Shown here: positions 5,900-23,444 of the stretch, in pieces
Layout: the number at the start of each line of letters is the position of its first letter
Position numbering within the stretch: position 1 is the stretch's first letter
IMG/VR virus record: IMGVR_UViG_3300023179_000076
Coordinates: 1 to 64,000 of that record
DNA: 64,000 bases
DNA from: an uncultured virus (IMG/VR IMGVR_UViG_3300023179_000076)
Lineage: Duplodnaviria; Heunggongvirae; Uroviricota; Caudoviricetes
Direction: 5' to 3' (one strand)
Notes under the pieces: generated by a model
The model's database searches: none
The model's input: only the letters and a program-made list of their open reading frames with translations
Told to the model about the DNA's origin: nothing
Made by a program: the position numbers and the translations under genes

Positions 5900-7366
5900 A
5901 TGATACTTTGTGATCCTGCCGCAGAAAGAGCGGTATTGTCTGGAATATGCAAATATGGTGAAAATGCATATTTAGATATTGCTGATATTATACAACCATC
6001 AACATTTACTGTTGATAGTAATGTAATGATATATCAAGTAATAAAAGAGATATGTGAAAAAGACCATAGTCCCTCTATAGATATAGCATCAATCCTATCT
6101 GTTGCTCAATCATTAAATTTTGGTCATATTTTATCTCAAAAAAATGAGACTCAACATTTAAAAGCTATTATAGATTTTCCTGTTAATCTAGAAAATGTCA
6201 GAAAATTTGCAGCTAAAATTAGAAAACTACAAATAGCTAGATTACTTAGAGATCAATTAGAAGAAGCAAAAGAAAAATTATTGGATATCACCGGAGCCGA
6301 ACCAATATCGTCGATTATAGGATTGGCAGAAGATAGTATCTTCAATTTCTCGACCCTACTAAATGATACTGATAATAATCCTGTTTGTATAGCTAATATC
6401 GTTGATGATTATATTAATAATATCAAAGAAAATCCAATTGATCAAGTCGGTATATCTACAGGATTTCACGTTTATGATAATGCTATAGGTGGTGGTCTTA
6501 GAAAAGGATCAGTAAGTATTATAGCCGCAAGACCAAAAACTGGTAAGACTCTGCTAGCAGATAATATTGGTTTACACATAGCAAAAAATGTCAAAGTGCC
6601 AGTATTAAATATGGACACCGAGATGAGCACAGACGATCATCTTAATAGGGTTTTGGCCATGATGACAGAAATAGAGATTTCAAGTATAGAAACCGGTAAA
6701 GCATTTGAGTCTCCGGATAAAAATAATAGATTACAAACGGCTCAAAAAGAACTTAAAGATGTTAGACTGTATTACAAGTCAATCGCTGGTAAACCATTTG
6801 AAGAACAATTGGCTATCATGAGAAGATGGCTTGTTAAGGAGGTTGGATTACACCCAGATGGAACAGCCAAAGACTGCGTTATTGTTTATGATTATCTAAA
6901 ACTAATGGATAGTGCAGGAATATCTCAGGATATGAAAGAGTATCAGGTTTTAGGTTTTATGATGACAAGCTTACATAATTTTGCTGTCAGATATAAAGTT
7001 CCTATTCTTGGTTTTATACAATTAAATAGGGATGGTATAACAAAAGAAACCACAGATACCGCCAGCGGTTCTGATCGTATAATATGGTTATGTAGCAATT
7101 TCACTATTTTCAAAAGAAAAAGCGACGAAGAGATCGCCGAAGACGGACCCACTAACGGTAATAGAAAACTTGTTCCTATTATTAGTAGACACGGTGGAGG
7201 TCTAGACGACAATGACTATATTAATTGTCACATGAAGGGCTGGTGTGCAAAAATTGAAGAAGGTAAGACAAGATTGGAATTAGTAAATAATAATACTAAC
7301 ACAGACAAAGGATTTATTGTTAATGACGAGAACAATGATGACGATCAAGAAATCCCGTTCGTATAA
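5900..7366 (+). CDS. dnaB: Replicative DNA helicase DnaB
   Basis: N-terminal AAERAVL, GISTGF..YD..IGGGLRKG, Walker A AARPKTGKT, MDTEMS, VYDYLKLM, FIQLNR, ISRHG. Confidence 0.93.
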   Translation: MILCDPAAERAVLSGICKYGENAYLDIADIIQPSTFTVDSNVMIYQVIKEICEKDHSPSIDIASILSVAQSLNFGHILSQKNETQHLKAIIDFPVNLENVRKFAAKIRKLQIARLLRDQLEEAKEKLLDITGAEPISSIIGLAEDSIFNFSTLLNDTDNNPVCIANIVDDYINNIKENPIDQVGISTGFHVYDNAIGGGLRKGSVSIIAARPKTGKTLLADNIGLHIAKNVKVPVLNMDTEMSTDDHLNRVLAMMTEIEISSIETGKAFESPDKNNRLQTAQKELKDVRLYYKSIAGKPFEEQLAIMRRWLVKEVGLHPDGTAKDCVIVYDYLKLMDSAGISQDMKEYQVLGFMMTSLHNFAVRYKVPILGFIQLNRDGITKETTDTASGSDRIIWLCSNFTIFKRKSDEEIAEDGPTNGNRKLVPIISRHGGGLDDNDYINCHMKGWCAKIEEGKTRLELVNNNTNTDKGFIVNDENNDDDQEIPFV

Positions 7367-8492
7367 TCAGCCACAACTTAAAGTACTATCTGATTATTTA
7401 TGTGAAGATATAGATAATCTACTAGACAATTTAAATGTTGGTGAGTATAAAACTTTTGATCGCATGATAGCCATGAGATGTCCAATTCATGGCGGAGATA
7501 ATAATTCTGCTTGTAATTTATATTACAAAGGAGACTCATATAGAGGTAACTGGAAATGCAGAACACATCAATGTGAAGAAACCTTTAAAGGGTCTATTAT
7601 AGGATTTATAAGAGGTTGTTTATCTAAACAAAATGGTTGGACAGGACCTGGGGATCCAACCGTTTCTTTTAACGACGCTGTAGAATACGCCATTAATTTT
7701 ACTAAAAAGAATCCTAGTCAAATAAAAGTTAGTAAAAAAGAAGTAGAAAAAAATAATTTTGTAAATATTGTTAATAATATACAAACAGATATTAGATCTG
7801 TTGATGATACTCCTAAAATCACAAGAGATAAAATAGTAAAGAATTTAAAAATTCCATCAGATTATTTTATTAGCAGAGGATTTTCTTCTGAAATACTTAT
7901 CAAATATGATGTTGGTGAATGTTTAAGTTCCGAAAAAGAAATGGGCGACAGAGCTGTTGTACCAGTATACGACGACACTCACGAGAATATGGTCGGTTGT
8001 TCTGGCAGAAGTATTTTTACTCAATGCTCTAAATGTAAAAGTTATCATAATTTAACAAAAGATTGTCCAAATTCAGATTATTTATGGCAATATTCTAAGT
8101 GGAAACATAATAAGGGATTTAAAACACAAGAGTATCTATATAATCTATGGTATGCAAAAGACTATATACAACAGAATAAAAATGTTGTGCTGGTCGAAAG
8201 CCCAGGAAATGTTTGGAGATTAGAAGAGGCCGGAATTCATAATAGCGTAGCCCTATTCGGCTCTGTATTACAAGAAAAACAAAAATTGTTATTGGATATT
8301 TCTGGAGCAATGAGTATATATATACTTATGGACAATGACGACGCTGGCAAAAGAGCTGCTCAAAAAATCTATGATAAATGTCATAAAACATATAATGTTT
8401 TCTATATTGATATTGATCACAGCGATGTTGCTGATATGTCAGTAGCTGAAGTAAAAGAGATTATTTTACCACAATTAAAAGATAAATACTAA
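7317..8492 (+). CDS. dnaG: DNA primase DnaG (true start possibly ATG 7335)
   Basis: CHC2 zinc finger CPIHGGDN...WKCRTHQC, YFISRGF, RAVVPVYD, VGCSGR, YLYN, TOPRIM LVESPG and MDNDDAG. Confidence 0.88.
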   Translation: MLMTRTMMTIKKSRSYNQPQLKVLSDYLCEDIDNLLDNLNVGEYKTFDRMIAMRCPIHGGDNNSACNLYYKGDSYRGNWKCRTHQCEETFKGSIIGFIRGCLSKQNGWTGPGDPTVSFNDAVEYAINFTKKNPSQIKVSKKEVEKNNFVNIVNNIQTDIRSVDDTPKITRDKIVKNLKIPSDYFISRGFSSEILIKYDVGECLSSEKEMGDRAVVPVYDDTHENMVGCSGRSIFTQCSKCKSYHNLTKDCPNSDYLWQYSKWKHNKGFKTQEYLYNLWYAKDYIQQNKNVVLVESPGNVWRLEEAGIHNSVALFGSVLQEKQKLLLDISGAMSIYILMDNDDAGKRAAQKIYDKCHKTYNVFYIDIDHSDVADMSVAEVKEIILPQLKDKY

Positions 8493-9085
8493 TGAATACT
8501 AAAATAATAGCATTTTCTGGCCGTAAACAGTCTGGCAAAACTATTTGTTCAGAATTTTTAAAAGGATTATTATTATCTAATGGATATTCTGATGTTGAAA
8601 TATATAACTTTGCAGATCCATTGAAAGAAGACATATGCATGAACATGTTTGGATTATCATACGTTCAGTGTTATGGCGAAGATCATAATAAGAATGAACT
8701 AGTTGATGCCTATTGGGAAGATAAGCAACTAACAGCTAGAGATTTAATGCAATTAATAGGCACCGACTTATTTAGAAAATTAAATAATAATATTTGGGTA
8801 AATGCTCTTATCAATAAAATTAAAAAGAGTAAACTTCAAGTTGTTATAGTTTCTGATTGTAGATTTCCTAATGAAATAGAAGCTATAAAAAATAATGGAG
8901 GAATAGTATTTCGACTAAATAGAAATCCACACAAATCAGAACATATTAGCGAATCAATATTGGATGCTTGCAGATATGATTGGAATAATTTTAATGCTAT
9001 CATTAATAATGAACATATGACAGTTAGAGAGCAATATGATAAACTTAAAAAACTTATGTTACATTTTAATGTACTACCACAATAA
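8492..9085 (+). CDS. Deoxynucleoside monophosphate kinase
   Basis: IAFSGRKQSGKT, NFADPLK, RDLMQLIGTDLFR, VSDCRFPNE, HISE. Confidence 0.9.
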   Translation: MNTKIIAFSGRKQSGKTICSEFLKGLLLSNGYSDVEIYNFADPLKEDICMNMFGLSYVQCYGEDHNKNELVDAYWEDKQLTARDLMQLIGTDLFRKLNNNIWVNALINKIKKSKLQVVIVSDCRFPNEIEAIKNNGGIVFRLNRNPHKSEHISESILDACRYDWNNFNAIINNEHMTVREQYDKLKKLMLHFNVLPQ

Positions 9086-9094
9086 TAGGATATC

Positions 9095-11083
9095 ATGATT
9101 ATAACTTATTTCCGTAGTTCGTCTTATAATGCCCATTCTATGTGCGAACAACAATTTTTTTTTGAATATGTACTAGGATGGAGGGGCCCAAGTGGACAAA
9201 AGGCGGATAAAGGAACAATAGTCCATAAAGTTTTAGAAATTCTTGCCATGATCAAACAAGGTCAGCAAGATAAATTATCTCATATAAATGATGACGAATT
9301 CTTAGGTCTTATAGATATAAATGACTATAGTCTTAATACCATAATAGAAAAAGTATACAAGCATTATAGTACCGCTAATAGTCATCATACTTGGACTCTA
9401 AAAGATTATAAGGACTGCTATAATTGGGTTTACAAGGCTATAGAATTTAATGGCGGTATGTTTGATCCTAGAAATCGCACCATTCTTAGACCAGAACAAC
9501 ACTTTGATTTGGTAATAGAAAAACCATGGGCTAAATACGAGTATAATATTAATAATCAAAAACTAGATGGATATTTGGGCTTAAAAGGCACTATAGATCT
9601 TATAACTTTGGCTAATGATAATACTATTGAGGTCATAGATTGGAAAGGATTGCCATTAGATACAAAATTACCTACTCTTGACGGATGGACAACAATTGCA
9701 GATATAAATGTGGGATGTAATGTCTTTGATCAATACGGTAATATATGTCGCGTTGTTGGAAAATCAAAAGTCAAAACAAAAAAATGTTTCAGAGTAACTT
9801 TTGATGACAAAACATCGGTAATTTGTGACGATGAGCATTTATGGAAATTATCTAATGGTGAAACGGTATCTATACAGGATCTAGCTATTGGCGATACTAT
9901 TAATGTGACAAAACCATTAAAATGTAATGAACAATCCCTACCAATAGATCCTTATCTATTAGGAGTCTGGTTAGGAGACGGAAGAAATAGAGGCTGCGAG
10001 ATTAGTGGCAATGATACTGAAATTTTTGAAGAAATACAAGCAAGAGGTTATGAGCTAGGAAAAATTCAAAATGATAAAAGATCAAAAAATAAGACAGTAT
10101 CGATCCTAAATGTGACAAAAATACTAAAATCTTTAAATCTATTGAATAATAAACATATACCAAAAATTTATTTGAGAGCATCTTTTCAACAAAGGCTAGA
10201 CTTACTAAGGGGTTTGATGGATACAGACGGAAATGTAAATCCAATTAGAAAACAAACTGTGTTTACTTCTTGTAATAAAAAACTATCCGACGATGTTAAA
10301 GACCTACTTTTAACCCTTGGGCAAAGACCGAATCAAGCGTGTATTAAAAGAGATACAAATTACAAAAAAAACGTAATCATATATCCTATTTCGTTTCGTC
10401 CAATTGACATTAATCCTTTTCTATTGAACAGGAAAAAAGAACTTGTGGATGTAAATTGGGGATCTGGAAGATCTAGGGTTAGACGAGTTTCTAAAATAGA
10501 AGAATCGATTATACAAAAAACTCAATGCATTTCCGTAGACAGTCCAGACAATACTTATCTGTGTACAGAAAATTATATTCCAACACATAATACTGGACGA
10601 AGACTAGATTGGGCAACAGGTCAAGAAAAAACCCAAGAAAAGTTAGAGAAAGATCCACAACTTAAAATTTATCACTATGCTATTAAAAAATTATATCCGC
10701 ATATTGAAAATGTAATTTTTTCTATCTACTTTATTAATGATGGTGGTCCTTTTTCTATGGTATTTCACGATAGTGATTTAATAGATACAGAGAATATGCT
10801 AAGAGAAAAATTTGATATTATTAAGAAAACAAAACGACCTAAACTTAATAAAACATGGATGTGTAATAAATTATGTCATTTTGGTAAAACCACTTTTGAG
10901 AATACTAATATAGAACCTTTGCAGGAGTATAGAGATGGACAAATATGTCAAAAAGGATCTGTGATGACAAAGTGCGAACAAGTCAAGCACGACCTTGAAC
11001 TTTACGGGATCGATGCTACAATGAGTATGTACAAACACCCGAATCATTCTTTTGGATCTTACAAAGCACCAGGATCAGTATGA
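9095..11083 (+). CDS. PD-(D/E)XK (RecB/Cas4-like) nuclease containing an intein
   Basis: RSSSYN..CEQQ, KGTIVHKVLE, LKGTIDLI, IDWK|TG split by the intein, QLKIY, C-terminal Cys cluster CNKLCHF. Confidence 0.88.
   Translation: MIITYFRSSSYNAHSMCEQQFFFEYVLGWRGPSGQKADKGTIVHKVLEILAMIKQGQQDKLSHINDDEFLGLIDINDYSLNTIIEKVYKHYSTANSHHTWTLKDYKDCYNWVYKAIEFNGGMFDPRNRTILRPEQHFDLVIEKPWAKYEYNINNQKLDGYLGLKGTIDLITLANDNTIEVIDWKGLPLDTKLPTLDGWTTIADINVGCNVFDQYGNICRVVGKSKVKTKKCFRVTFDDKTSVICDDEHLWKLSNGETVSIQDLAIGDTINVTKPLKCNEQSLPIDPYLLGVWLGDGRNRGCEISGNDTEIFEEIQARGYELGKIQNDKRSKNKTVSILNVTKILKSLNLLNNKHIPKIYLRASFQQRLDLLRGLMDTDGNVNPIRKQTVFTSCNKKLSDDVKDLLLTLGQRPNQACIKRDTNYKKNVIIYPISFRPIDINPFLLNRKKELVDVNWGSGRSRVRRVSKIEESIIQKTQCISVDSPDNTYLCTENYIPTHNTGRRLDWATGQEKTQEKLEKDPQLKIYHYAIKKLYPHIENVIFSIYFINDGGPFSMVFHDSDLIDTENMLREKFDIIKKTKRPKLNKTWMCNKLCHFGKTTFENTNIEPLQEYRDGQICQKGSVMTKCEQVKHDLELYGIDATMSMYKHPNHSFGSYKAPGSV
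9647..10591 (+). mobile_element. Class 3 intein (315 aa) with LAGLIDADG endonuclease
   Basis: Block A GLPLDTKLPTLDGW, block B CDDEHLW, endonuclease motifs YLLGVWLGDG and LLRGLMDTDG, block F TQCISVD, block G NYIPTHN|T. Confidence 0.92.
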
Positions 11084-12378
11084 CCTATTCTGTTCTTCAT
11101 TGTCATTCGCATTTTAGTCTTTTGGATGGTCTTAATCGTCCAGAACAAATAGCCAATAGATGTTCTAAATTAGGCATTAATTCTTGTGCCTTAACCGATC
11201 ACGGTAACATCGCCGGTTCTGTACAATTCTATCAGAAAATGCGAAATAAAAATATAAAACCAATTCTTGGCTGTGAATTATATATATGTGAAGATGATCC
11301 GAGCATACAAACAAAAGAAAATGCTTCATTATCACATTTTTTGGTATTGGCGAAGAATTTGCAAGGATGGAAAACATTAATAAAGATTGTTTCCGAATCC
11401 AACAGGCCCGATTACTTTTATCATAAGCCACGTTTAAGTCTGGCGAAATTAGCAGAAATACTAGACGGTAATATTATAGGTATCTGTGGACATTTGGGAT
11501 CAACATTAGCAGATAAGATATTATGCGACGAATCCAAAGCTATAGATAATGGATTATCTTTTGTAGATTATATGAAAACTATATTTGGTAATGATAATTT
11601 TTTTCTAGAGACACAACTATTTGATCAAGCATATCTAAAACAACAAACATATTTAACAGATACAATAAGAAGAATCTCTCAATTAAGTAAAACAAAAGCG
11701 GTATGCACACCGGATGCTCATTATTGCGAACAAGATGATGCTATAGATCAAAGAATATTACTCTGTAATAATCTTAAAACAACATTATCAGATATAAATA
11801 CTAAGATGCTTCATAATCAATCTGTACCTATGGAGTGTTTCTTTAAAAGCGATAAATACTACATTCTGTCTCCAGAAGAAATGAAAACTCTTCATAATGA
11901 CGAAGAGATAGAAAACACTTTGTTTGTGGATAGTCTAATAGAAAATTTTGATATACTATCGCCACCTAAATTGCCTAAATTCGAATGTCCCGAAGGATTC
12001 TCTTCGGATGAATATTTAAGAGAATTATGTAGAAAAGGTTGGAAAAATAGAATTATACCGAATATTGACAAATCACAACAGGATATTTATGTTGATAGAA
12101 TAAAATATGAACTACAGGTTTTGCAAAATGCTGGGCTTAGTAGTTATTTTCTAATTGTTCAAGACATACTAAGATATGTTAAAAATAATAATTGGTTAGC
12201 AGGACCAGGACGAGGAAGCGCAGCCGGATGCTTGGTTTCTTATTTAATAGGTATTACAGATATAGACCCTATTAAACACGAATTACTATTTGAAAGATTT
12301 TATTCCGATGGCAGGAATGTAAAAGAACACATATCTTTTCCGGAATTTTCTATACAAACATTTAAAAATGGTGTATAA
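11080..12378 (+). CDS. dnaE: DNA polymerase III alpha, fragment 1 (PHP domain and first part of palm)
   Basis: LHCHSHFSLLDG, ALTDHG, PILGCE, DAHY, GPGRGSAAGCLVSYLIGITDIDP, LLFERF; stops with TAA before PDID. Confidence 0.93.
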   Translation: MTYSVLHCHSHFSLLDGLNRPEQIANRCSKLGINSCALTDHGNIAGSVQFYQKMRNKNIKPILGCELYICEDDPSIQTKENASLSHFLVLAKNLQGWKTLIKIVSESNRPDYFYHKPRLSLAKLAEILDGNIIGICGHLGSTLADKILCDESKAIDNGLSFVDYMKTIFGNDNFFLETQLFDQAYLKQQTYLTDTIRRISQLSKTKAVCTPDAHYCEQDDAIDQRILLCNNLKTTLSDINTKMLHNQSVPMECFFKSDKYYILSPEEMKTLHNDEEIENTLFVDSLIENFDILSPPKLPKFECPEGFSSDEYLRELCRKGWKNRIIPNIDKSQQDIYVDRIKYELQVLQNAGLSSYFLIVQDILRYVKNNNWLAGPGRGSAAGCLVSYLIGITDIDPIKHELLFERFYSDGRNVKEHISFPEFSIQTFKNGV

Positions 12379-12396
12379 ACAGTATAATTCCGGAGG
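12337..12396 (+). promoter_or_regulatory. Predicted RNA hairpin sequestering the endonuclease Shine-Dalgarno sequence
   Basis: TTTCCGGAATT (12337-47) pairs with AATTCCGGAGG (12386-96, two G-U pairs); TATACA pairs with TGTATA and CATT with AATG. The SD GGAGG at 12392-96 precedes ATG 12401. Confidence 0.65.
12370..12389 (+). promoter_or_regulatory. Putative phage promoter motif GGTGTATA-N5-TATAATT
   Basis: GGTGTATA AACAG TATAATT; same architecture recurs at 46242-46261 (-). Confidence 0.55.
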
Positions 12397-12400
12397 CAAT

Positions 12401-13219
12401 ATGAAAGCTAAAATAAAAGACTATAAAAATAAGAGCTATAATTTACTTACTATAATAACTTTAGTTTCGGATAGTAAAGGAGAAACAATTGCTAAGTGTA
12501 AATGTAAATGCGGCAATGTCTGTTATAAGAAACTATCTATGATAAAGATTAACCATGTTAAAAGTTGTGGTTGTTTAGCAAAATCAACTAGATTTACTAA
12601 AAATAGTAAAAAAAAATTATTAAATGATTTCTCTAAATTAGATGCCGCATCAGCTTATTGGCTTGGTTTTATTTTTGGCGATGGAAATATTAGTGATAGT
12701 AATAAGCTACAATTATGCTTGGGATCAGAATCAAAAAAACATTTGATTAAATTTTCTAAATTTTTAATAGGCTCTAATATAGTAAAAGACTACGATAATA
12801 GGTGTACATTTCAATTTACTAGTGATATTTTAGCAAATAATATATCAAAATATGGTATTATACCAAGAAAAACATGGCATAGTACTTTAAAATTACCGTC
12901 GGATCAATTATTATGGCCAGATTTTATAAGAGGATATTGGGATGCTGATGGATGGGTTAGTATAAAAAAACAAACCAATAAAAATAAAGTCTACACTGGT
13001 TACAACATAGGTATATGTTCATATCTTCCAGAAAATTTGGAAACAGTATCCAAAGCCTTACCTGTAAAATATAAAAAACCAACAAAAATAAAAAATAGAG
13101 ACTTGTATCAGTTAATATACCAAAACAAGAGTGAAATTAAAGTTATAGCAAAATATTTACTAAACAATCATTTATATATAGACTACAAATGGAAAAAAAT
13201 TCTACACTTACTAGACTAG
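12401..13219 (+). CDS. Free-standing LAGLIDADG homing endonuclease with Cys-rich N-terminal domain (ORF track start 12368)
   Basis: AYWLGFIFGDG and FIRGYWDADG dodecapeptide motifs; N-terminal KCKCKCGN...KSCGC; GGAGG before ATG 12401. Confidence 0.88.
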   Translation: MKAKIKDYKNKSYNLLTIITLVSDSKGETIAKCKCKCGNVCYKKLSMIKINHVKSCGCLAKSTRFTKNSKKKLLNDFSKLDAASAYWLGFIFGDGNISDSNKLQLCLGSESKKHLIKFSKFLIGSNIVKDYDNRCTFQFTSDILANNISKYGIIPRKTWHSTLKLPSDQLLWPDFIRGYWDADGWVSIKKQTNKNKVYTGYNIGICSYLPENLETVSKALPVKYKKPTKIKNRDLYQLIYQNKSEIKVIAKYLLNNHLYIDYKWKKILHLLD

Positions 13220-14073
13220 TACATGAGATTAAAAGCCAGCCTATAATCGAAAGGTTAGAACAAGAAAAAAATAATAGATTTCTTGAACATGAATGCTCTA
13301 TAGTTCTTTCGGCTCCAGAAAATATATCATACTATAATCATATAATAGTAAATAAAAATATTTTATCCGAAAACACTATTAATAGTTATATAATGTGGAT
13401 ATATGGTATTGTCGATCAGCTTGATAATACTCGTCCAATACAAAGCATTCCAGCCAGAATACAAATGCCAGATATCGATATAGATATCCCAATAGATAAA
13501 CGAGAACAAGTATTAGAATATATAAAAAGTAAATATGGATATGGCAAAGTATCACAAATGATTACTTTTAATACTATGAAAGGTAGAGGGGCGTTAAAAG
13601 ATGTGCTAAGAGTATATGGTAATATATCTTTCGAAGAAATGAATTCTATTACCAAATTTATTCCTGACGAAGCCAAAATAGCCGACGAACTTCAAGAGAT
13701 GAAAGAAGATACCGGAGAAGCCTCGATTATTAGATGGGCTTTAGAGAATAACACAGACAAACTGAAAGAATGGTGCTATATAGCAGAAGATGGTTCGTTG
13801 GCTGGTCCATTATCGAAAAGATTTGAACAGGCCATAAGGCTTGAAGGAACAAAATCCAACCAAAGCAAACACGCTGCTGGTGTAATAATAGGTACCGAAG
13901 ATCTTGCATCTCTGTGTCCTATGGTCTATGATAATAGAAATGATCAGCTGATAGCAGGCATGGAGATGAACGATCTAGAGAGTTTGGGTTTAATTAAATT
14001 TGATATATTGGGTATAGCTTATTTAGACAAAATCATGTCTGTATCAGAATACTTAAAAAATGGAGAACTATAA
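13189..14073 (+). CDS. dnaE: DNA polymerase III alpha, fragment 2 (catalytic palm/thumb) with a 92-aa N-terminal extension
   Basis: MPDIDID (starts 13465), KVSQMITF, ALKDVLR, SKHAAGVII, GLIKFDILG; all three catalytic Asp are present. Confidence 0.92.
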   Translation: MEKNSTLTRLVHEIKSQPIIERLEQEKNNRFLEHECSIVLSAPENISYYNHIIVNKNILSENTINSYIMWIYGIVDQLDNTRPIQSIPARIQMPDIDIDIPIDKREQVLEYIKSKYGYGKVSQMITFNTMKGRGALKDVLRVYGNISFEEMNSITKFIPDEAKIADELQEMKEDTGEASIIRWALENNTDKLKEWCYIAEDGSLAGPLSKRFEQAIRLEGTKSNQSKHAAGVIIGTEDLASLCPMVYDNRNDQLIAGMEMNDLESLGLIKFDILGIAYLDKIMSVSEYLKNGEL

Positions 14074-14255
14074 TGTTAACAAAAACATTAGATCAAGTTG
14101 CTGTAGGCGAAAATTTTAAAGTTAATAATGTAGAGTATACTAAGATTCAAGAGGTTAGAGTAAGTTGTTGCAGAAGCGCTAATTGTCACGTTGTTGCAGA
14201 TAGTAATCAAAGGACTTTTTTCCCAGGAAACACAGTAGTGGAGACAAATGGCTAA
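14073..14255 (+). CDS. Small hypothetical protein
   Basis: 60-aa ORF coupled by overlaps to dnaE fragment 2 and dnaQ. Confidence 0.6.
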   Translation: MLTKTLDQVAVGENFKVNNVEYTKIQEVRVSCCRSANCHVVADSNQRTFFPGNTVVETNG

Positions 14256-14949
14256 TTTACAAAAAATTTGTGTGTTTGATTTAGAAACGGACGGGGCTAA
14301 TCCCGACCTTTGTAGCCCCGTTCAAATTGCTTCTCTGATAATAGATCCATATAAATTAGAAATTATCAAAGATTCAGAATTTAATATTAATCTAAAACCA
14401 TCCATATTAGATGAAAAACCTGACTATATATATGATGATAGTGATGTTCTTGATTTCCATGCCAAGGTTAGAGGATGTGAAAAAACTAAAATATTAGAGG
14501 ATTGGAAATCTTATCAAAATCAGGATAATGGATGGAAAATGTTTGTGTCTTATTTAGAGAAATATCACATAAGATCAGATAAAAAATCTTGTTTTACAGC
14601 GCCAATAGCCGCTGGATACAACATAAATAGATTCGATCTTAGAATTATAGAAAGACTAAGTACTAAATACAATAATGTCAATAAGGAGGGAAGAACATCT
14701 CTTTTTTATCCACGAGACGTTATAGATTTAATGAATGTGATATTTTATTGGTTCGAAGGAAATAACGAACTAAAAAACTATACATTAGATAATGTTAGAG
14801 AATATTTAGGTCTTGGCAATAGTGGATCTCATGACGCGCTAAACGATGTAAGAGCCACCGCTGATATTCTCATTAGATTTATGAAACTTCATAGAAATCT
14901 TGGTAATAAGGTTAAATTCAAAAACGCGTTCGCCGCAGCTTCTGCATAA
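14248..14949 (+). CDS. dnaQ: DEDDh 3'-5' exonuclease (DnaQ/epsilon-like)
   Basis: ExoI VFDLETDG, ExoII GYNINRFD, ExoIII HDALND. Confidence 0.88.
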   Translation: MANLQKICVFDLETDGANPDLCSPVQIASLIIDPYKLEIIKDSEFNINLKPSILDEKPDYIYDDSDVLDFHAKVRGCEKTKILEDWKSYQNQDNGWKMFVSYLEKYHIRSDKKSCFTAPIAAGYNINRFDLRIIERLSTKYNNVNKEGRTSLFYPRDVIDLMNVIFYWFEGNNELKNYTLDNVREYLGLGNSGSHDALNDVRATADILIRFMKLHRNLGNKVKFKNAFAAASA

Positions 14950-14954
14950 TATTT

Positions 14955-16568
14955 ATGAATCATCACTATACGTTTGATTGTGGTTGTAAATTTAAGGTAT
15001 TGGACTATACCCAGGATGGTATTCCTAGAATAGATTTCGATGGCAAACTAGAAAATCTAAATCTAGAATGTTCCAAAACATGGGATATGATAGCACAAGG
15101 AAACACAAAAGGCGTTTTCCAATTAGAGTCCAGACTAGGCTCTAGCATGTCCAAAAAACTTAAACCACAGAATATAGAGCAGCTTTCTGCATTGATTAGT
15201 ATTATGCGACCAGGATCGTTAGAGGCATATAGGGAAGGCAAAAGTATTAGTGATCATTATATAGACAAAAAAAATGGTCAAGAAGAATTAGACTATTTTC
15301 ATCCTTCTCTTGAGCCTTCATTAAAATCGACCTATGGCGAGATGATTTACCAAGAACAGGCCATGCAAATCGCTCAGGCGGTGGCTGGATTCGATCTTCA
15401 AGAGGCCGATATGCTTCGTAAGGCTATAGGCAAAAAGAAACCAGAAGAAATGGCCAAAATTAAAGTTAAATTCAAAGATGGTGTTAAAAAACTTAATATT
15501 GTGTCGGAAGATGAGAGCGAAGAAATTTTTGGTTGGATAGAAAAAAGTCAAAGATATAGTTTTAATAAGAGTCATGCTGTAAGCTATGCTATGAATGCAT
15601 ACTCATCAGCATATGCTAAAGCGCACTTCGCGAAAGTGTTTTTTGCATCATATTTAAAGTTCGCAAAAGACAAGATGGATCCACAAAAAGAAATCAAGGA
15701 ATTAATCAGGAACGCCACAGAAATGGATGTTACTGTTTGCGTTCCAGATTTAAGAAAACTTAATAAGCATTTTACCATAAATGATGATAAAATTTATTTT
15801 GGCTTAACAGATATAAAAGGGGTTGGTTATTCGGTATATGATAAGATCATAGAGATAATCAAAAATATTGATCTTAATTCCATATCATGGTATGGCTGTT
15901 TAGTAAAATTACTCAATAAAATAAACTCTACAGCCGCTAAGGCGCTAATATCATGTGGTTCTCTTGATTATTATCATATGTCACGCACACAAATGTTATT
16001 TGAATATGATATAATATCGGAATTAACATCTAGAGAATTAGATCTTTTAGATATAAACCAAAAACATCTAGGACAAGTTTTAGAGAATCTGCTAACTAAC
16101 AGCAAGATTAATACCAAACGAAAAACTAATATACAAAATTTAATTAAGCTATATGAAAATCCACCATACTCATTAAACGATAAAATAGAATGGTTATCTG
16201 ATACAGAAAATGCGTTGCTTGGAGCATCCATTACCTGTTTTAAAATAGATTCATACGATATCAGCATGACAAACTGTGATTGCAAAATGTTTAAACATAC
16301 CAATAATGTTAAAAATATTATTTTGGCTGGTGAAATTAGTAATATAAATTTTGTTAAAACAAAGAATGGGAAAAATGCTGGTGCAGAAATGGCTTTTGTT
16401 ACAATAGAGGACCAATATGCGTCCTTAGACTCGGTCATCTTATTTCCTGATCAATTGTCTAAATACCGAAACTATCTGTTTGAAGGAAATGTACTAATAT
16501 TTCTAGGTAATAAGAGTCCTAAAAAAGATTCTTTTATAGTAGAAAAATGTTTTATACCAAGGTCTTGA
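14955..16568 (+). CDS. dnaE: DNA polymerase III alpha, fragment 3 (fingers, HhH, OB fold)
   Basis: TKGVFQLES, MRPG, IYQEQ, EADMLRKAIGKK, YSFNKSHAVSYA, FGLTDIKGVG, EMAFVTIED. Confidence 0.93.
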   Translation: MNHHYTFDCGCKFKVLDYTQDGIPRIDFDGKLENLNLECSKTWDMIAQGNTKGVFQLESRLGSSMSKKLKPQNIEQLSALISIMRPGSLEAYREGKSISDHYIDKKNGQEELDYFHPSLEPSLKSTYGEMIYQEQAMQIAQAVAGFDLQEADMLRKAIGKKKPEEMAKIKVKFKDGVKKLNIVSEDESEEIFGWIEKSQRYSFNKSHAVSYAMNAYSSAYAKAHFAKVFFASYLKFAKDKMDPQKEIKELIRNATEMDVTVCVPDLRKLNKHFTINDDKIYFGLTDIKGVGYSVYDKIIEIIKNIDLNSISWYGCLVKLLNKINSTAAKALISCGSLDYYHMSRTQMLFEYDIISELTSRELDLLDINQKHLGQVLENLLTNSKINTKRKTNIQNLIKLYENPPYSLNDKIEWLSDTENALLGASITCFKIDSYDISMTNCDCKMFKHTNNVKNIILAGEISNINFVKTKNGKNAGAEMAFVTIEDQYASLDSVILFPDQLSKYRNYLFEGNVLIFLGNKSPKKDSFIVEKCFIPRS

Positions 16569-16592
16569 CAAAACGCTGCCGCTTGGTATAAT
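16565..16592 (+). promoter_or_regulatory. Consensus sigma70 promoter for ssb
   Basis: TTGACA-16 nt-TATAAT with extended -10 TG; SD AGGAG at 16621-25, ATG at 16634. Confidence 0.8.
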
Positions 16593-16633
16593 ATTGTATA
16601 GTTGTAGCGTTTTTACTTTTAGGAGTTTTGAAA

Positions 16634-17002
16634 ATGAATATTACATTGTTGAAGGGTAATCTTGCACGAGATCCTGAGTTAAGAGTTGTTAATCCAAATG
16701 GAAAACAAACTAGTGTGGTAAATTTTACCATTGCTGTTAATAGGGATTATGTAAAATCGAATGGAGAAAAAGATCGAATTACATCTTTTATTAATTGCGA
16801 AGCATGGGATAGCGGAGCCGAAACTATTGCTGAGTCACTAAAGAAAGGTGATCTGGTTATGGTTGAGGGGTCTCTTAGAAACGATACATGGGAAAAGGAT
16901 GGAGTTAAGCATAGTAGTCTAAAGGTTAGAGTTAATAACTTTTCAAAGATTACTAAGCTTAGTAGGTCGAAAACTGAAGAATCAGAAACAGTTGCTTTCT
17001 GA
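16634..17002 (+). CDS. ssb: Single-stranded DNA-binding protein
   Basis: MN...LKGNLARDPELR, VVNFTIAVNR, FINCEAW, LKKGDLVMVEGSLR; short acidic tail ending in F. Confidence 0.93.
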   Translation: MNITLLKGNLARDPELRVVNPNGKQTSVVNFTIAVNRDYVKSNGEKDRITSFINCEAWDSGAETIAESLKKGDLVMVEGSLRNDTWEKDGVKHSSLKVRVNNFSKITKLSRSKTEESETVAF

Positions 17003-17022
17003 CCAACACTAAAGGAATGTAT

Positions 17023-17059
17023 ATAGAATATTGGGGGTGAAATATCCCCCGTATTCTAT
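17023..17059 (+). terminator. Stable stem-loop between ssb and the glycosyltransferase (terminator, processing or stability hairpin)
   Basis: ATAGAATA-TT-GGGGG-loop-CCCCC-G-TATTCTAT; no clean U tract follows. Confidence 0.55.
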
Positions 17060-17065
17060 TCCATA

Positions 17066-18709
17066 ATGGCAAAATCTAAATTAAAAATATTGATGTGTTC
17101 CGAAGCTAGTTTCATAAATTCTGGTTTTGGAAAATATGCAAAACAGATATTATCAAGATGGCATAAAACCAATAAGTATAGTATTGCAGAGTTTGCCTCA
17201 TACGGAATGGTAAATGATCCAAGAGATAAAAATATAGACTGGATTTATTATGCTAATGCTGTGCGAGATAACGATCCTAGATATAAGGAGTATATGTCTA
17301 GGACAGATAATCAATTTGGAAGATGGAGATTCGAAAAGGTTCTATTAGATTTTAAGCCAGATATTGTGGTTGATGTTAGAGATTTTTGGATGAGTGGGTA
17401 CCAAACCCTATCCCCTCTAAGACCTTATTTTCATCATATTCTCATGCCCACGGTAGACTCTGCTCCACAGCAAGAAGAGTGGGTAGATGTATTTCTATCA
17501 ACAGATGCTATTTTTACATATAGTGATTGGGGCGCTCAAATCCTTAAACAGCAAACTAATGATAAAATAAAATATATTGCCACAACTAGTCCTGGTGTTG
17601 ATTTAGATATTTTTAATATTAAGGATAAAAATAGTTGTAGACAAATTCTGGGTATAGATAATGATGTATTTATAGTTGGTTCTGTTATGAGAAATCAAAA
17701 AAGAAAACTGATTCCAGAGCTTTTAGCTTCTTTCAAAAAAATATTATCTATTTTTGAGAAAGAAAAACGATCCGATAAAATATTTCTATATCTTCATACA
17801 ACATATCCGGATATGGGATGGGATATTCCTGAGTTACTAAATGATCATCAAGTATCTAACAATGTTCTTTTTACATACCTATGTAAGAACTGTTCCAATA
17901 TAGAGAGTTGCGTATACTCTGGACCTCAAAAAGTATGCTCAAAATGTTTTAATAAATCATCGCAATTTCCATCTGTATCTCAAGGCGTTACTGACGAACA
18001 ACTTAGTATAATCTACAATACATTTGATTTATATGTTCAATATGCTATATGCGAAGGATTTGGTATGCCACAAGTCGAAGCTGCTGCCTGTGGTATCCCT
18101 ATAGCAACTGTCGAATATAGTGCTATGGTAGATATTATATCAAAGTTAGAAGCATATCCAATAAAAATTAAAACATATTTCAAAGAACTCGAAACAAAAG
18201 CTATTAGAGTATATCCAGATAATGATTGCCTAATTGATATTATACTAAAAGAATTAGATAAACCAATATCTATTAGAAATAATAATAGAATTCGAATAAG
18301 AAATTTAACAGAAAAATATTATAACTGGGATAATATTGCAAAAATTTGGGAGAATTATTTTGATAATCTAGACTTTAGATCAGACTGGTCCAAGCCTCTA
18401 CCAATCTTGCGTAAAGCGAGCATATCTAATAAGGATTCTAATTTTTCACAATTCATTAACCTATGCAATAATACGATGAAGAATAGTGAACTTTTATCGT
18501 CTTTCAAGTTTTTGAATATGCTTCAGAATGCAGACTATGGTTTCCATTATGTATCTCCAACACAAATCTCTGGATATGGTATAAATAATTTATGCGATCA
18601 TATCAATACTATGATAGATAATAATAATAGATCAGAAGAAGTCAGACAAAAAAATATTAAATTTGAAGAAGACTTTATACAATATGCACATTTAAAGAAT
18701 GATATATGA
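17066..18709 (+). CDS. GT-B (GT4-like) glycosyltransferase with a Cys-motif insertion
   Basis: SGFG, PDIVV, PGVDL..F, VMRNQKRK, YNTFDLYV...EGFGMPQVEAAACGIP, YNWDNIA. Confidence 0.88.
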   Translation: MAKSKLKILMCSEASFINSGFGKYAKQILSRWHKTNKYSIAEFASYGMVNDPRDKNIDWIYYANAVRDNDPRYKEYMSRTDNQFGRWRFEKVLLDFKPDIVVDVRDFWMSGYQTLSPLRPYFHHILMPTVDSAPQQEEWVDVFLSTDAIFTYSDWGAQILKQQTNDKIKYIATTSPGVDLDIFNIKDKNSCRQILGIDNDVFIVGSVMRNQKRKLIPELLASFKKILSIFEKEKRSDKIFLYLHTTYPDMGWDIPELLNDHQVSNNVLFTYLCKNCSNIESCVYSGPQKVCSKCFNKSSQFPSVSQGVTDEQLSIIYNTFDLYVQYAICEGFGMPQVEAAACGIPIATVEYSAMVDIISKLEAYPIKIKTYFKELETKAIRVYPDNDCLIDIILKELDKPISIRNNNRIRIRNLTEKYYNWDNIAKIWENYFDNLDFRSDWSKPLPILRKASISNKDSNFSQFINLCNNTMKNSELLSSFKFLNMLQNADYGFHYVSPTQISGYGINNLCDHINTMIDNNNRSEEVRQKNIKFEEDFIQYAHLKNDI

Positions 18710-19674
18710 ATATTCTATATATAGGTCCTTATAGATCATTAAGTATCGATGGTTATTTGTCTTTGAATCTATTATTGAATTTAAAGGATCTGAAACAATA
18801 TACTGTGACAGCTAGACCCATATTTATATCAAATAGAGTTAATAATCTAGCCAGCAAATTAAATGATACAATTCTGTCAATGGAAAATCATCAGTCTAAA
18901 TCTTTTGATCTATTAATACAAAACACAGAGATCAATACTATTTCTTATAATTCTAAGATACCATATCATATCTTTTTTCCTAATTATAAAGATATTATTC
19001 CTGATGATAGTATATCACAAAAATATATATTTCTAAGTAATAGGGGATTGCTATTATATAGTAATAATATTCATAAAAAATTATTAGAATATCTTAATAT
19101 TGATAATGGTTTATTTCTTAATAACAATATTAATAATAAATTATTATCTCCAACAAATAATATATTTAATTTAGGTATCTATAATAGATATAAAAAATAT
19201 TATACCATAATTCAATCCAATATAGATTATGATACAAAAAAAATAATTGTAGATTTTATTAAACTTAATCAAGAAAATAATTGTTTGGTATTATTTATAC
19301 AAGATATTGATCAGGAAATGCTCAATAAATGCAATGAATATATAAAGAGCGTGTATAAAAAATTTGAAATCAATAATACTATTTCGAAAGTTATAATTGT
19401 TCCCACATTGTTAAACGAAACGTCCATCAGATCAATACATAATACTGGTGATATCTATATACACAAAGACAATGATCTTCATCTTATGCTTGCTAAAGAA
19501 TATGGTAAACATATTGTATTAAATACATCTAATGTTACTATACAATGGGATCAAAACGATCTGCATAAATATGGTAAATTAAAAAATACACAAGATATCG
19601 ACCTTTTATCTGAGAAAAAATATCCCAGTTTAAAAAACAATCTTAGCGAAATTATAGATGCCTATGTTAAATAA
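18706..19674 (+). CDS. Degenerate glycosyltransferase-like protein
   Basis: MNILYIGPY start, KYYTI and IHNTGDIYI resemble GT-B elements; no EGF motif. Confidence 0.5.
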   Translation: MNILYIGPYRSLSIDGYLSLNLLLNLKDLKQYTVTARPIFISNRVNNLASKLNDTILSMENHQSKSFDLLIQNTEINTISYNSKIPYHIFFPNYKDIIPDDSISQKYIFLSNRGLLLYSNNIHKKLLEYLNIDNGLFLNNNINNKLLSPTNNIFNLGIYNRYKKYYTIIQSNIDYDTKKIIVDFIKLNQENNCLVLFIQDIDQEMLNKCNEYIKSVYKKFEINNTISKVIIVPTLLNETSIRSIHNTGDIYIHKDNDLHLMLAKEYGKHIVLNTSNVTIQWDQNDLHKYGKLKNTQDIDLLSEKKYPSLKNNLSEIIDAYVK

Positions 19675-20509
19675 TTTAGCCTGTTCAAACATTATTAATA
19701 ATTTACTAGATAATAAAACCATATACTATATTGGTAAAAAGAACATATTTTTTTATATGTTAAATGTTAATTCTGATTATAATATCATTACCGAACCATC
19801 TCAACCTTTTTCAGCTATCTTATCCGACGATCCTTTGTTTTATTCTCAAAACATAGAAAAGCTGTCTTTAGAATATAATGTAAATAGTGTTCTGGTATTC
19901 CATGATCCACCATCAAATATAATTAAAAAAGAAGATAAATATATCCTAGATAGAAAACTAAGAAATAGTCATAGAATATTTTTTAGTAAAACTATTAAAG
20001 AGTTATGGAACATGGACAATAATTGTCATATTCTACAATATGGCCTACCAGAGAATATTGATATGACAAAAGATAAAGACATTTTAATATTAAATATTGA
20101 TCATAGTAATGTCAATATAGAGCTATATAACTATATCAAAACATTAGCAAATAGTTGTGACATATTAAATAAAAACGATATTAGTTCTTATGAAGATATA
20201 TTAAATATAATATCTAAATATAAAATATGTATTGTAACACAAGGTCAATACGACGCTATCCTTAGTTCTACTTTAAATTGTTTTGTTTTAACAAATATTC
20301 CATTATCTCAAGAGTTTTATAATCCTCTAATAAAAAATATCAACAATAAAAATATAAACGAGCAAATAAAATCCATACTAGAAAACTATTCTTTACCAAA
20401 AGAAATACAATCTTATTCTAATACATATATAAATATAAAAAATATGCAACATAATATAAATCAAGTTTTTAATCAAGTCTTTAAAAGAGTATATATTTAT
20501 GAGCCGTAA
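19658..20509 (+). CDS. Hypothetical protein, possibly degenerate glycosyltransferase
   Basis: 283-aa ORF in the GT cluster; YEDILNIISKYKICI resembles a GT-B C-terminal element. Confidence 0.45.
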   Translation: MPMLNNLACSNIINNLLDNKTIYYIGKKNIFFYMLNVNSDYNIITEPSQPFSAILSDDPLFYSQNIEKLSLEYNVNSVLVFHDPPSNIIKKEDKYILDRKLRNSHRIFFSKTIKELWNMDNNCHILQYGLPENIDMTKDKDILILNIDHSNVNIELYNYIKTLANSCDILNKNDISSYEDILNIISKYKICIVTQGQYDAILSSTLNCFVLTNIPLSQEFYNPLIKNINNKNINEQIKSILENYSLPKEIQSYSNTYINIKNMQHNINQVFNQVFKRVYIYEP

Positions 20510-20903
20510 TATCAACATATCCATCACAGAACCTTCTGATAAAAACACTATTCACATAAATGATCTTGCATCAATAATTAACTATTCTTGCGATAGTATT
20601 AAAGTTGCGTGTTTAGAATTCTTACCAGAGAATGCCCATGGACAGGTTATTAATATATTATTATCTAAGCTAAAACCTCTTGGAAAACTCATTATTACAA
20701 TTAATAATGTTACCAGTATCACTAAAAATTTTATGGCTGGAAGTATGTCATATCAAGATTTCTTAACCTTTTTTCAGAATAAACAAAGCTTACTGTCTAT
20801 AGATAGTCTTTATACATTTATAGACTTTAATACTTTCGATATTATACATATAAATCAAGAAGAATATTTTACAACACTATTCTTAGAGAGAAAACAGTTA
20901 TGA
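20499..20903 (+). CDS. Truncated class I SAM methyltransferase-like protein
   Basis: YSCDSI...LEFL...LLSKLKPLGKLII resembles the C-terminal half of class I MTases. Confidence 0.5.
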   Translation: MSRNINISITEPSDKNTIHINDLASIINYSCDSIKVACLEFLPENAHGQVINILLSKLKPLGKLIITINNVTSITKNFMAGSMSYQDFLTFFQNKQSLLSIDSLYTFIDFNTFDIIHINQEEYFTTLFLERKQL

Positions 20904-21622
20904 GAAATACACTATGTCAAGACTGTTATTTCGCTAAAAAAACAACATCAGACGATAAAGCGTGTTTTTTTGATATTCCAACAATAATAAAAGATATTCA
21001 CAATATACGTATTGATAATGAATTTAATATTATAGAAAACTATCAGTGCAGATATGGAATAAGTAATAAAATATACAAAGAAAATATTGATAAATTTCAT
21101 TCTGTGGATCTTATAGAATATATTAAACAACAAAACACAATTCGCTACTCCATCGCAGTTATTCTAGACAAATCTCCAGATACTGATCTGCTGATAAACA
21201 ACTTAAATAATCTATCTATTAAGCCATACTATATAACCATAGTCTGTTATAACAATACCGAAAATTTAACAAAAAAAATCAACAATCTTGGTATTAAATA
21301 TAAGATCCATAAATTTTTAGAAGATATTCCTGGACCACAAGCTCTTCACATTGCACTGGAAACAAATAAGAAAAATATCCAAAATGTGTTGTGGATTCTA
21401 ACAGAAGCAGGATTAGATCATGTTGTTAAGAACGATAGCATACAAGAAATCAATTATTTGGTGAATGTGGAACAAAAATCTATTCATTATTATAAATGTT
21501 CTAATATAGATTCAAATATTGATGGCGTTTTTATAGGCACAGATAACTATAAGCTTTTCTCAAAAAATATAGACTATACTATAGAACAAAATACGAATAT
21601 ATTATTTGATTATTATGATTGA
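20900..21622 (+). CDS. Hypothetical protein (Cys-rich N-terminus, possible GT-A remnant)
   Basis: CQDCYFA..C...C start; located in the GT cluster. Confidence 0.5.
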   Translation: MRNTLCQDCYFAKKTTSDDKACFFDIPTIIKDIHNIRIDNEFNIIENYQCRYGISNKIYKENIDKFHSVDLIEYIKQQNTIRYSIAVILDKSPDTDLLINNLNNLSIKPYYITIVCYNNTENLTKKINNLGIKYKIHKFLEDIPGPQALHIALETNKKNIQNVLWILTEAGLDHVVKNDSIQEINYLVNVEQKSIHYYKCSNIDSNIDGVFIGTDNYKLFSKNIDYTIEQNTNILFDYYD

Positions 21623-22283
21623 TATACTAATAATAACTCCAGAAATAACGAAAGGAATGAAATCTATAGGATCAAAGTGTTTACTTAATCTAAAAAAGAA
21701 TATGAGTGTTTTGGAATACCAAATTAGTCAGGCTCAAAAAATAAATAAAATATCTAATATAACAATTAATATAGGTTTTGATTATGATAAGATTATTAGT
21801 AAGCTTTATAGATATAAAAATATTAATTTTTTAATTAATAACGAATATGAGCATACTAATCAAGCACAAAATCTTATAACTTATATTAATAAGTATAGAC
21901 CAAAAAATTTGTTAGTAATCAACAGTGGAATACTGATTAAAGACAAAATTATAGATAAAAGCTTTCTAAATAATGAGTCAAAAATATTTATGCTTAACAA
22001 GCCTAAAAAAAATTTTACAATAGGATCATCATTATCTACAAATCTCGAATATCTTTTTTTTGATATGGAACAGTCGTGGTCGGAGATAGTCTATTTTAAT
22101 AATTTGGCCATAGACACCTTCTTGTCATGCGATAGTTCTATGTTTAAACAAATGTATCTGTTTGAGGCTATCAACTTTTTACTACAAAAAAATATTGTGT
22201 TTAAGAAAATTTATATTAACAAAAATAACATAATGAAAATAAATAATGCTAAAGATATTACAAGCGCCAGGATATTTATATGA
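21606..22283 (+). CDS. Sugar/choline-phosphate nucleotidyltransferase-like protein (degenerate)
   Basis: ILIITPEITKGMKSIGSKCLL, VLEYQI, IGFDYDKI, NNEYEHTN follow the LicC/GlmU-N layout but lack the AAG motif. Confidence 0.65.
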   Translation: MIIMIDILIITPEITKGMKSIGSKCLLNLKKNMSVLEYQISQAQKINKISNITINIGFDYDKIISKLYRYKNINFLINNEYEHTNQAQNLITYINKYRPKNLLVINSGILIKDKIIDKSFLNNESKIFMLNKPKKNFTIGSSLSTNLEYLFFDMEQSWSEIVYFNNLAIDTFLSCDSSMFKQMYLFEAINFLLQKNIVFKKIYINKNNIMKINNAKDITSARIFI

Positions 22284-22993: not shown

Positions 22994-23444
22994 AAAAAGC
23001 ATAGGCTTTATGATCATTAATATAGAAAATAATGAATATTATGATAATATTCTAAAAAATATTAAACTTTTGATAGATAACAATCCCTATTATAATATTG
23101 TAATATTCAATAGTAATTGTGACAAAGTATTAACATATAATATACCAATATTACATCTTTCCCATGCTAAGTTTTTTAAAGGCGATTTATGGACATTCGA
23201 TTTGGTTAGTCTTATTATATCGAAAAAATTTCCAAATATTAATAAAAAGATATTATACTGTAATGATATACCATGGATTAAAAATAGAAATAATCTATAC
23301 AATGAATGGAAAGATATCTACAATGATATAGATTTTGTAGCTTCTAACCAATATATATATGATATATATGATATGTCTTGGAGAAAACCATTAGATATTA
23401 TGGAGAGTTTTAATTATGAAAAAATACAACACATCTTACGATAA
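22986..23444 (+). CDS. Hypothetical protein
   Basis: 152-aa ORF overlapping both neighbours. Confidence 0.6.
   Translation: MNKKSIGFMIINIENNEYYDNILKNIKLLIDNNPYYNIVIFNSNCDKVLTYNIPILHLSHAKFFKGDLWTFDLVSLIISKKFPNINKKILYCNDIPWIKNRNNLYNEWKDIYNDIDFVASNQYIYDIYDMSWRKPLDIMESFNYEKIQHILR

Follow-up and report, generated by a model that had tools for sequence, protein, structure and literature searches.

Intein-free palm-fingers break in a phage DNA polymerase III alpha subunit, with a proofreading exonuclease gene in the gap

Introduction

The alpha subunit of DNA polymerase III (Pol III alpha, DnaE) is, to our knowledge, regarded as a single-chain enzyme, and the only well-known split form needs an intein. 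The present analysis concerns a dnaE locus in DNA of an uncultured lake virus of the Caudoviricetes (IMG/VR record IMGVR_UViG_3300023179_000076; 77,280 bases, about 53% complete by CheckV), of which positions 1-64,000 constitute the window that was analysed and to which all coordinates refer. On the plus strand of this window, three open reading frames (ORFs), here called f1, f2 and f3 in 5'->3' order, encode fragments of DnaE, and a 60-amino-acid (aa) ORF, o60, and a gene for a DEDDh exonuclease lie between f2 and f3. The last two fragments are separated at the border of the palm and the fingers, two domains that belong to one chain in the classical enzyme.

According to Dassa et al. 2009 (PMC2677866), cyanobacterial DnaE is broken elsewhere in the chain, its halves come from separate loci and a split intein joins them; three metagenomic DnaE loci, termed 'fractured genes', combine a split intein with a free-standing endonuclease. 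The locus described here shares with cyanobacterial DnaE the encoding of Pol III alpha in two genes, from which it differs in that the halves are adjacent and intein-free. It resembles the fractured genes as a phage-like DnaE from aquatic metagenomes that is divided in two with a gene between; those, however, carry split inteins and GIY-YIG or Vsr-like endonucleases, whereas here no intein was detected at either break and the endonuclease, which lies between f1 and f2, is of the LAGLIDADG type. The same portion of that text (PMC2677866) describes endonuclease-made genes-in-pieces of T4-related phages, namely the NrdA gene of Aeh1 with mobE and the split gp43 polymerase. As in these, an essential replication enzyme is encoded by adjacent ORFs whose products would work without covalent joining, and the f1/f2 break is of the Aeh1 NrdA kind, in that a free-standing endonuclease gene separates the halves and close relatives have alleles without the interruption. 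Unlike in the T4-type genes, the palm-fingers gap has no endonuclease in the window and holds the gene for a proofreading exonuclease, the break is ancient and common to a very large clade, and the enzyme belongs to the C family, as opposed to a B-family polymerase or a reductase.

Group 2.2 jumbo phages encode a minimal split Pol III alpha that is proposed to reconstitute, according to the available part of Iyer et al. 2021 (PMC7824862). Both cases present a phage C-family catalytic module as separate proteins, yet the jumbo-phage module is a minimal core that lacks PHP and other domains, encoded by distant genes with a PolB alongside, whereas the present locus provides the full DnaE domain set in adjacent pieces, with the exonuclease between them and no other recognizable polymerase. 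A further comparison is offered by the E. coli Pol III core (alpha, epsilon and theta), in which a C-family polymerase likewise works with a separate DEDDh proofreader and a small third subunit, for which o60 is a possible counterpart. In E. coli, alpha is a single chain, theta is helical and epsilon binds the PHP domain of the polymerase through its C-terminal tail, whereas an all-beta fold is predicted for o60, which has no match among known families.

The available portions of three surveys of viral and bacterial C-family polymerases (PMC3201878, PMC3919608, PMC12926913) make no mention of this arrangement, and no description of an intein-free palm-fingers split with an embedded exonuclease gene was found in full-text searches of freely accessible papers. 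Genes-in-pieces polymerases themselves are known; the intein-free palm-fingers split is widespread, conserved and so far unremarked.

Position of the break

A reading made from the sequence alone (the sequence-only reading) had described a DnaE fragment, a small ORF, an exonuclease gene and a further DnaE fragment between 13189 and 16568, and this layout proved right in every particular of ORF positions and Pfam domains. Upstream of it, f1 (11080-12378) encodes a PHP domain (PF02811, E 1.4e-34) and the first part of the palm; f2 (13189-14073; 294 aa) encodes the palm with the motifs MPDIDIDI and KFDILG, and the palm family PF07733 is thereby divided into positions 1-99 in f1 and 96-260 of 260 in f2 (f2 E 2.3e-38). 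Then follow o60 (14073-14255) and the gene of the DnaQ-like DEDDh 3'-5' exonuclease (14248-14949; 233 aa), a match to RNase_T in Pfam (E 4.3e-9) and to PHROG 192, 'DNA polymerase exonuclease subunit' (4.4e-22). The last fragment, f3 (14955-16568; 537 aa), comprises a cysteine leader, the fingers (PF17657 positions 7-164 of 166, E 4.6e-48), a helix-hairpin-helix (HhH) domain (HHH_6, E 6.9e-10), a QMLF stretch behind it that we take to resemble a clamp-binding motif, and a C-terminal OB fold that is weak in Pfam. The domain boundaries coincide with the ORF borders, and f1, f2 and f3 together hold exactly one DnaE domain set with nothing missing or duplicated: PHP, palm with PDxD and the third Asp, and fingers with HhH and OB are all present, distributed over three ORFs in place of one continuous polypeptide.

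Comparison with solved structures locates the break more narrowly. The C-terminus of f2 reads ...KFDILGIAYLDKIMSVSEYLKNGEL* and the N-terminus of f3 reads MNHHYTFDCGCKF..., with TKGVFQLES at f3 residues 51-59; at the sequence level, f2 residues 88-280 align with Taq alpha 456-626, and f3 residues 33-345 align with Taq alpha 646-951 and E. coli alpha 589-891. These alignments place the break in the linker that connects palm and fingers (about 20 residues; Taq alpha 627-645), past the strand that bears the third catalytic Asp, and only about the first 11 residues of f3, the CGC motif included, have no single-chain counterpart. An AlphaFold model of f3 (overall pLDDT 83) superposes on Taq alpha 638-1123 with Z 15.1 and rmsd 4.5 over 430 aligned residues, and on E. 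coli alpha 572-927 with Z 12.7; in the same model, residues 425-537 match OB folds (Z 11-12) and the leader is predicted to form three short strands (pLDDT 81-88).

Conservation of the arrangement

A synteny survey in related phages, which the sequence-only reading had proposed as a check, bore the arrangement out. A scan of viral contigs with f3 gave 251 relatives, of which the best 80 were kept (f3 identity 57-100%), and all 80 of these loci have distinct ORFs for f2 and f3 and an exonuclease gene in the interval, a regularity that is far beyond chance. Three further scans extended the collection to 192 loci, 105 of which are distinct when the first 200 residues of each f3 match are compared; 96 of the distinct loci are split, 3 are fused and 6 are incomplete. 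The exonuclease gene sits in the gap in 96 of the 96 distinct split loci, and the split arrangement is maintained from 35% to 100% identity. Among the fused loci, the exonuclease gene was located 1.8 kb downstream of the gene for SSB in L083 and directly upstream of dnaE in L158, and was not seen in L188.

At the protein level, a HMMER scan of 1.84 billion representatives returned 4,879 proteins at E <= 1e-30, and the best 150 (representatives of 50%-identity clusters) were classified. Stand-alone C-halves with a phi-x-phi-x-C-x-C leader make up 122 of these 150; another 23 stand alone without the leader, at least four of them starting inside the conserved core and probably truncated, and the remaining five carry the palm N-terminally and are fused. 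No relatives of the representatives P0112 and P0046 were found in the viral contig collection, and INPHARED contains no close relative (top tblastn identity 31.6%). A very large group of uncultured aquatic phages thus holds a Pol III alpha that is broken at the palm-fingers hinge, with the proofreader gene always in the gap.

Selection, expression and assembly

The ratio of nonsynonymous to synonymous substitution rates (dN/dS; Nei-Gojobori, ten pairs) ranged over 0.025-0.06 in the f2 core, 0.036-0.083 in f3, 0.04-0.08 in the exonuclease and 0.10-0.32 in o60. These values are rough, given the high and partly saturated dS; nevertheless, every piece has a dN far smaller than its dS. The f2 core is 70-100% identical over 46 relatives. 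Among 47 sequences, the f2 core shows no variation at P5, D6, D8, D10 and D183, nor does the exonuclease at D11, E13, D130, H195 and D200; in the latter, the catalytic residues of ExoI (D-x-E), ExoII (D) and ExoIII (H-x4-D) are all present and a C-terminal KFK..F tail is conserved.

No further dnaE came to light in a 152-kb strain with 99% f3 identity that is rated 100% complete, which has only the same two PF07733 pieces, and in each of two relatives whose genomes are complete and bear terminal repeats (200 and 238 kb) PF07733 is matched once, in a 627-aa frame. PolA and PolB had no match in these three genomes or in the window's own record, nor did the beta-clamp N-domain PF00712. Neither a full-length dnaE elsewhere nor a dN/dS near 1, the two outcomes that the sequence-only reading had named as contrary to it, was found.

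The junctions point to joint expression. Specifically, f2 and o60 overlap in TAATG, o60 and the exonuclease gene overlap by the 8 nt ATGGCTAA, and a spacer of 5 nt separates the exonuclease gene from f3; GGAG stands upstream of the start of o60 and of that of the exonuclease gene. There are no terminator-like sites within 10900-17030, and promoter-like sites do not exceed those in shuffled sequence (39 vs 34.1 +/- 5.1). Since the genes overlap or abut and no terminator intervenes, the operon is probably co-transcribed and translationally coupled, which would yield matched amounts of the N-half, the small protein, the exonuclease and the C-half.

Taken together, we consider it likely that the sole polymerase of the phage is a DnaE-type C-family enzyme made from separately translated polypeptides that assemble non-covalently. 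Polymerase chemistry requires palm plus fingers, and the pieces would therefore have to associate. A non-covalent multi-subunit replicase is the best reading because the split is free of detectable inteins and introns, is conserved, is under purifying selection and affects the sole recognizable polymerase of the complete relatives. In the mechanism that we propose, an ancient and conserved break in the short palm-fingers linker would divide an N-half, which contains PHP and a palm with all three catalytic Asp and would be supplied here as f1 plus f2, from a C-half that contains the fingers, HhH, the QMLF stretch and the OB fold. The pieces would associate, presumably during translation of a shared mRNA on which the exonuclease is produced between them and in matching quantity. 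The N-half of this strain has been cut again, beside the PDxDxD motif, by a mobile LAGLIDADG cassette, giving three polymerase pieces. If such assembly holds true, a C-family polymerase can work with palm and fingers provided in trans, and the locus would offer a natural system for hinge studies and split-replicase engineering as well as a new model for the coupling of polymerase and exonuclease.

Several points weigh against a non-covalent replicase. Fused forms (L083, L158, P0068, P0082, P0105) stand at a similar distance among the relatives, and a neighbour-joining tree (Biopython; 150 sequences, without P0121 because of its short length) has a star-like shape, for which reason it yields no order of fission versus re-fusion. 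The dS values range from 0.7 to >2.7 and are saturated in some pairs. The window's record is only about 53% complete, and because of this the absence of a second polymerase rests on the complete relatives. The metagenome runs with matching DNA (24 listed) are all non-RNA, and we infer non-covalent assembly, polymerase activity, co-translation and a role of the cysteine motifs from sequence.

The small protein and the cysteine leader

In 79 of the 80 loci, the interval from f2 to the exonuclease gene contains an o60-like ORF (56-69 aa); L049 has none. Its F15, C32 and C33 are invariant, and S31 and N37 nearly so. Of the SCC..C motif noted earlier, SCC (residues 31-33, nt 14163-14171) is thus conserved, and the third cysteine, C38, is not, nor is H39. 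The o60 model (pLDDT 92) is a six-stranded small barrel of SH3-like type with SCC between two strands, and its fold matches are generic only: SH3, KOW, Tudor, FeoA and EF-P domain I (Foldseek E >= 0.06; Z <= 5.0). No Pfam or PHROG match was obtained even at E <= 10, and the ESM Atlas offered only viral 'hypothetical protein' clusters. The o60 family comprises 111 standalone clusters of 56-71 aa, all unnamed; a precomputed label, PF26909.1, on four of the 111 (P0181, P0186, P0196, P0197) was neither reproduced nor named by the Pfam scan.

The leader of f3 (14955-15071) is specific to the split form and contains three cysteines that are invariant in 47 sequences: C9 and C11 (nt 14979-14987) and C39 (nt 15069-15071). 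The CxC leader is absent from all five fused representatives. Among the 96 split loci, leader and o60 occur together in 70, neither is present in 17, the leader alone in seven and o60 alone in two (L117, L149); in L181 and L189, which have the leader and no o60, the f2 stop abuts the exonuclease start. The association of leader and o60 is confounded by shared descent. An obligatory four-cysteine site shared by the CC of o60 and the CGC of f3 was considered and rejected because exceptions exist in both directions.

The sequence-only reading had suggested that the CGC leader and the small protein help in assembly. Both motifs are indeed conserved; the idea that they act together is weakened by the loci in which they do not co-occur. 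A more elaborate version holds that the break is a designed subunit interface and not merely tolerated damage, in which the exonuclease and, in this clade, also the SCC barrel and the three-cysteine leader would form a Zn or Fe-S clasp at the place of the palm-fingers linker, and this we regard as unlikely. If it were true, the proofreader would sit inside the polymerase core in place of being tethered to PHP, constituting a third form of coupling between DEDDh and C-family enzymes beside E. coli epsilon and the PolC insertion. Complex predictions with o60 as partner of the f2 core, the exonuclease and f3 1-300 gave 0.00 and, having been run without controls, are informative neither way.

Alternative explanations

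Among the explanations that compete with non-covalent assembly, separate functions of the halves survive best and are nevertheless improbable. For instance, the N-half might be a PHP nuclease or a nucleotidyl-transferase, and the C-half might bind DNA or the clamp, a possibility that has a precedent in PolB-bearing jumbo phages, whose minimal split Pol III modules are of uncertain role according to PMC7824862. No other polymerase is present here, however, and the halves are always adjacent and jointly make up one complete DnaE without a missing or duplicated domain.

It is very improbable that the fragments are relics in a phage replicated by host Pol III. That the PF00712 clamp was not found would make host factors necessary in any case, and the gene is riddled with mobile elements; on the other hand, dN/dS is far below 1 for all pieces, the catalytic residues are invariant, the arrangement persists from 35% to 100% identity, and the phage encodes its own helicase, primase and SSB in the same row.

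Post-translational ligation of the halves, by an unrecognised tiny split intein or other ligating element to which the f2 tail and the f3 leader would both contribute, can hardly be credited. Cyanobacterial and metagenomic 'fractured' DnaE are joined by split inteins according to PMC2677866, and the cysteines of the f3 leader are conserved. Yet the residues left over at the break, 14 in f2 past the structure-aligned palm and about 11-25 in f3 ahead of the aligned fingers, are too few for a Hint fold. The fragment ends lack the HN or C/S/T residues of an intein junction, and the leader is missing altogether from 17 distinct split loci. In agreement with the earlier statement that no intein motifs occur here, no intein or Hint family was matched in f1, f2 or f3 (Pfam, E <= 0.01), and the same Pfam library detects LAGLIDADG in the neighbouring nuclease and PF14890 inteins in f3 of relatives.

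There is just as little to recommend an intron that holds o60 and the exonuclease gene, or recoding at the junctions, either of which would give a single alpha chain, possibly with an internal exonuclease domain: group I introns are frequent in phage genes and f2 and the exonuclease share a frame in the window, yet Rfam introns were found neither in 9000-17200 (E <= 1) nor in 12300-13500 or 13950-15100 (E <= 10; only snoRNA and sRNA rows at chance level, in a search that a strongly divergent intron could escape), the relative frames of f2, o60, the exonuclease and f3 vary among relatives, which disfavours recoding, frameshifting and read-through, every ORF starts separately, with coupling of the overlap type, the exonuclease shows the conservation of a protein and no variation in its catalytic residues, and a search, albeit a weak one, for longer proteins containing o60 or the exonuclease found none.

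The f1/f2 break and its mobile cassette

The break between f1 and f2 is of a different kind. Alignment to L009 (f3 100% identical) and L011, both cassette-free, identifies it as a 1,128-nt insert (12337-13464), the borders of which are ambiguous by 24 nt owing to a duplicated target motif. This cassette carries a free-standing LAGLIDADG homing endonuclease gene (12368-13219; LAGLIDADG_3, 3.1e-8; PHROG 4645 endonuclease, 1.2e-27), in a frame that differs from those of f1 and f2, and an 89-aa N-terminal extension of f2 (residues 1-89). In the f1 tail, ISFPEFSIQTFKNGV*, the catalytic target ISMPDIDIDI recurs in degenerate form, and f2 continues after its 89 extra residues with the intact ARIQMPDIDIDI. 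A split intein at this site was rejected; there is no Hint match, and both fragments hold a copy of the RIS-MPD stretch.

An uninterrupted allele in close relatives and halves kept as ORFs, as expected of endonuclease-made genes-in-pieces, are both found at f1/f2. A free-standing homing endonuclease between halves occurs there only, the palm-fingers break having none in the window. The f1/f2 break is young and mobile. The earlier description of a three-piece Pol III alpha accordingly holds for this locus and does not extend beyond its lineage, f1 and f2 forming a single ORF in 68 of the 80 loci. The pattern seen in the window recurs in nine of the 80, namely eight near-identical strains and the distant L033, and the cassette is also present in the distant L083. 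Its N-extension is conserved in L033 and, with 55% identity over 280 residues, in P0011/L083, a lineage with fused f2 and f3. In L180 the f1/f2 break and the N-extension occur with no endonuclease gene, in a gap of about 80 nt, and L051 carries another insert of 1.2 kb at f1 residue ~379/380, with a frame change. L020 and L070 were flagged by script as split at f1/f2, yet the junction reads through.

DNA near-identical to positions 11900-14400 was found in 20 metagenome runs, all of lake or freshwater origin, that belong to 20 studies (2016-2024); two of these runs possibly represent the source sample. In the lake run X8, one cassette-free contig occurs beside cassette-bearing contigs, a weak hint only, as the shorter side of the joint spans 25 letters.

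Other mobile elements occupy the same gene in relatives. f3 is an intein hot spot, with inserts at residues ~87-95, 131, 153 and 203-206 in different clusters, and many f3 representatives bear inteins, among them P0002, P0004, P0006, P0026, P0105 and P0149; L158/L159 are interrupted with a frame change at about f3 residue 203. HNH-type endonuclease-like ORFs lie in the f2/exonuclease or exonuclease/f3 gaps of L163, L164, L170, L173 and L019, and L058, L062 and L075 have inserts of 1-3.6 kb between the exonuclease gene and f3. With one cassette here, and at least four intein sites and several HNH insertions in relatives, the locus illustrates how mobile elements turn an essential gene into genes-in-pieces.

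Genomic neighbourhood

The dnaE pieces are part of a replication row on the plus strand that starts with a DnaB-like helicase (5900-7366), a primase (7317-8492) and a dNMP kinase (8492-9085), followed by a PD-(D/E)XK nuclease (9095-11083) directly ahead of f1. The nuclease gene contains an in-frame LAGLIDADG insert of about 308 aa (residues ~190-497), presumably an intein, which is common to the closest strains; in most relatives its flanks are contiguous. The row continues behind f3 with SSB (16628-17002). A perfect sigma-70 consensus (TTGACA, 16 nt, TATAAT, with TG) at 16565-16592 overlaps the end of f3 just upstream of ssb, and a terminator-like hairpin follows ssb at 17032-17051.

Elsewhere in the window, an HNH-type homing-endonuclease-like gene (794-1381) lies directly after a PhoH-like gene, and a second HNH/homing-endonuclease-like gene (23416-24228) lies in an AT-rich glycosyltransferase region. 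Most minus-strand ORFs near the giant ones have no PHROG match; the giant minus-strand ORFs themselves span 25644-33758 (2,704 aa), 33755-40483 (2,242 aa) and 53847-63938 (3,363 aa). Positions 18001-22000, a gene block after the glycosyltransferase, are AT-rich, with a GC content of 0.24-0.25 compared with about 0.32 elsewhere.

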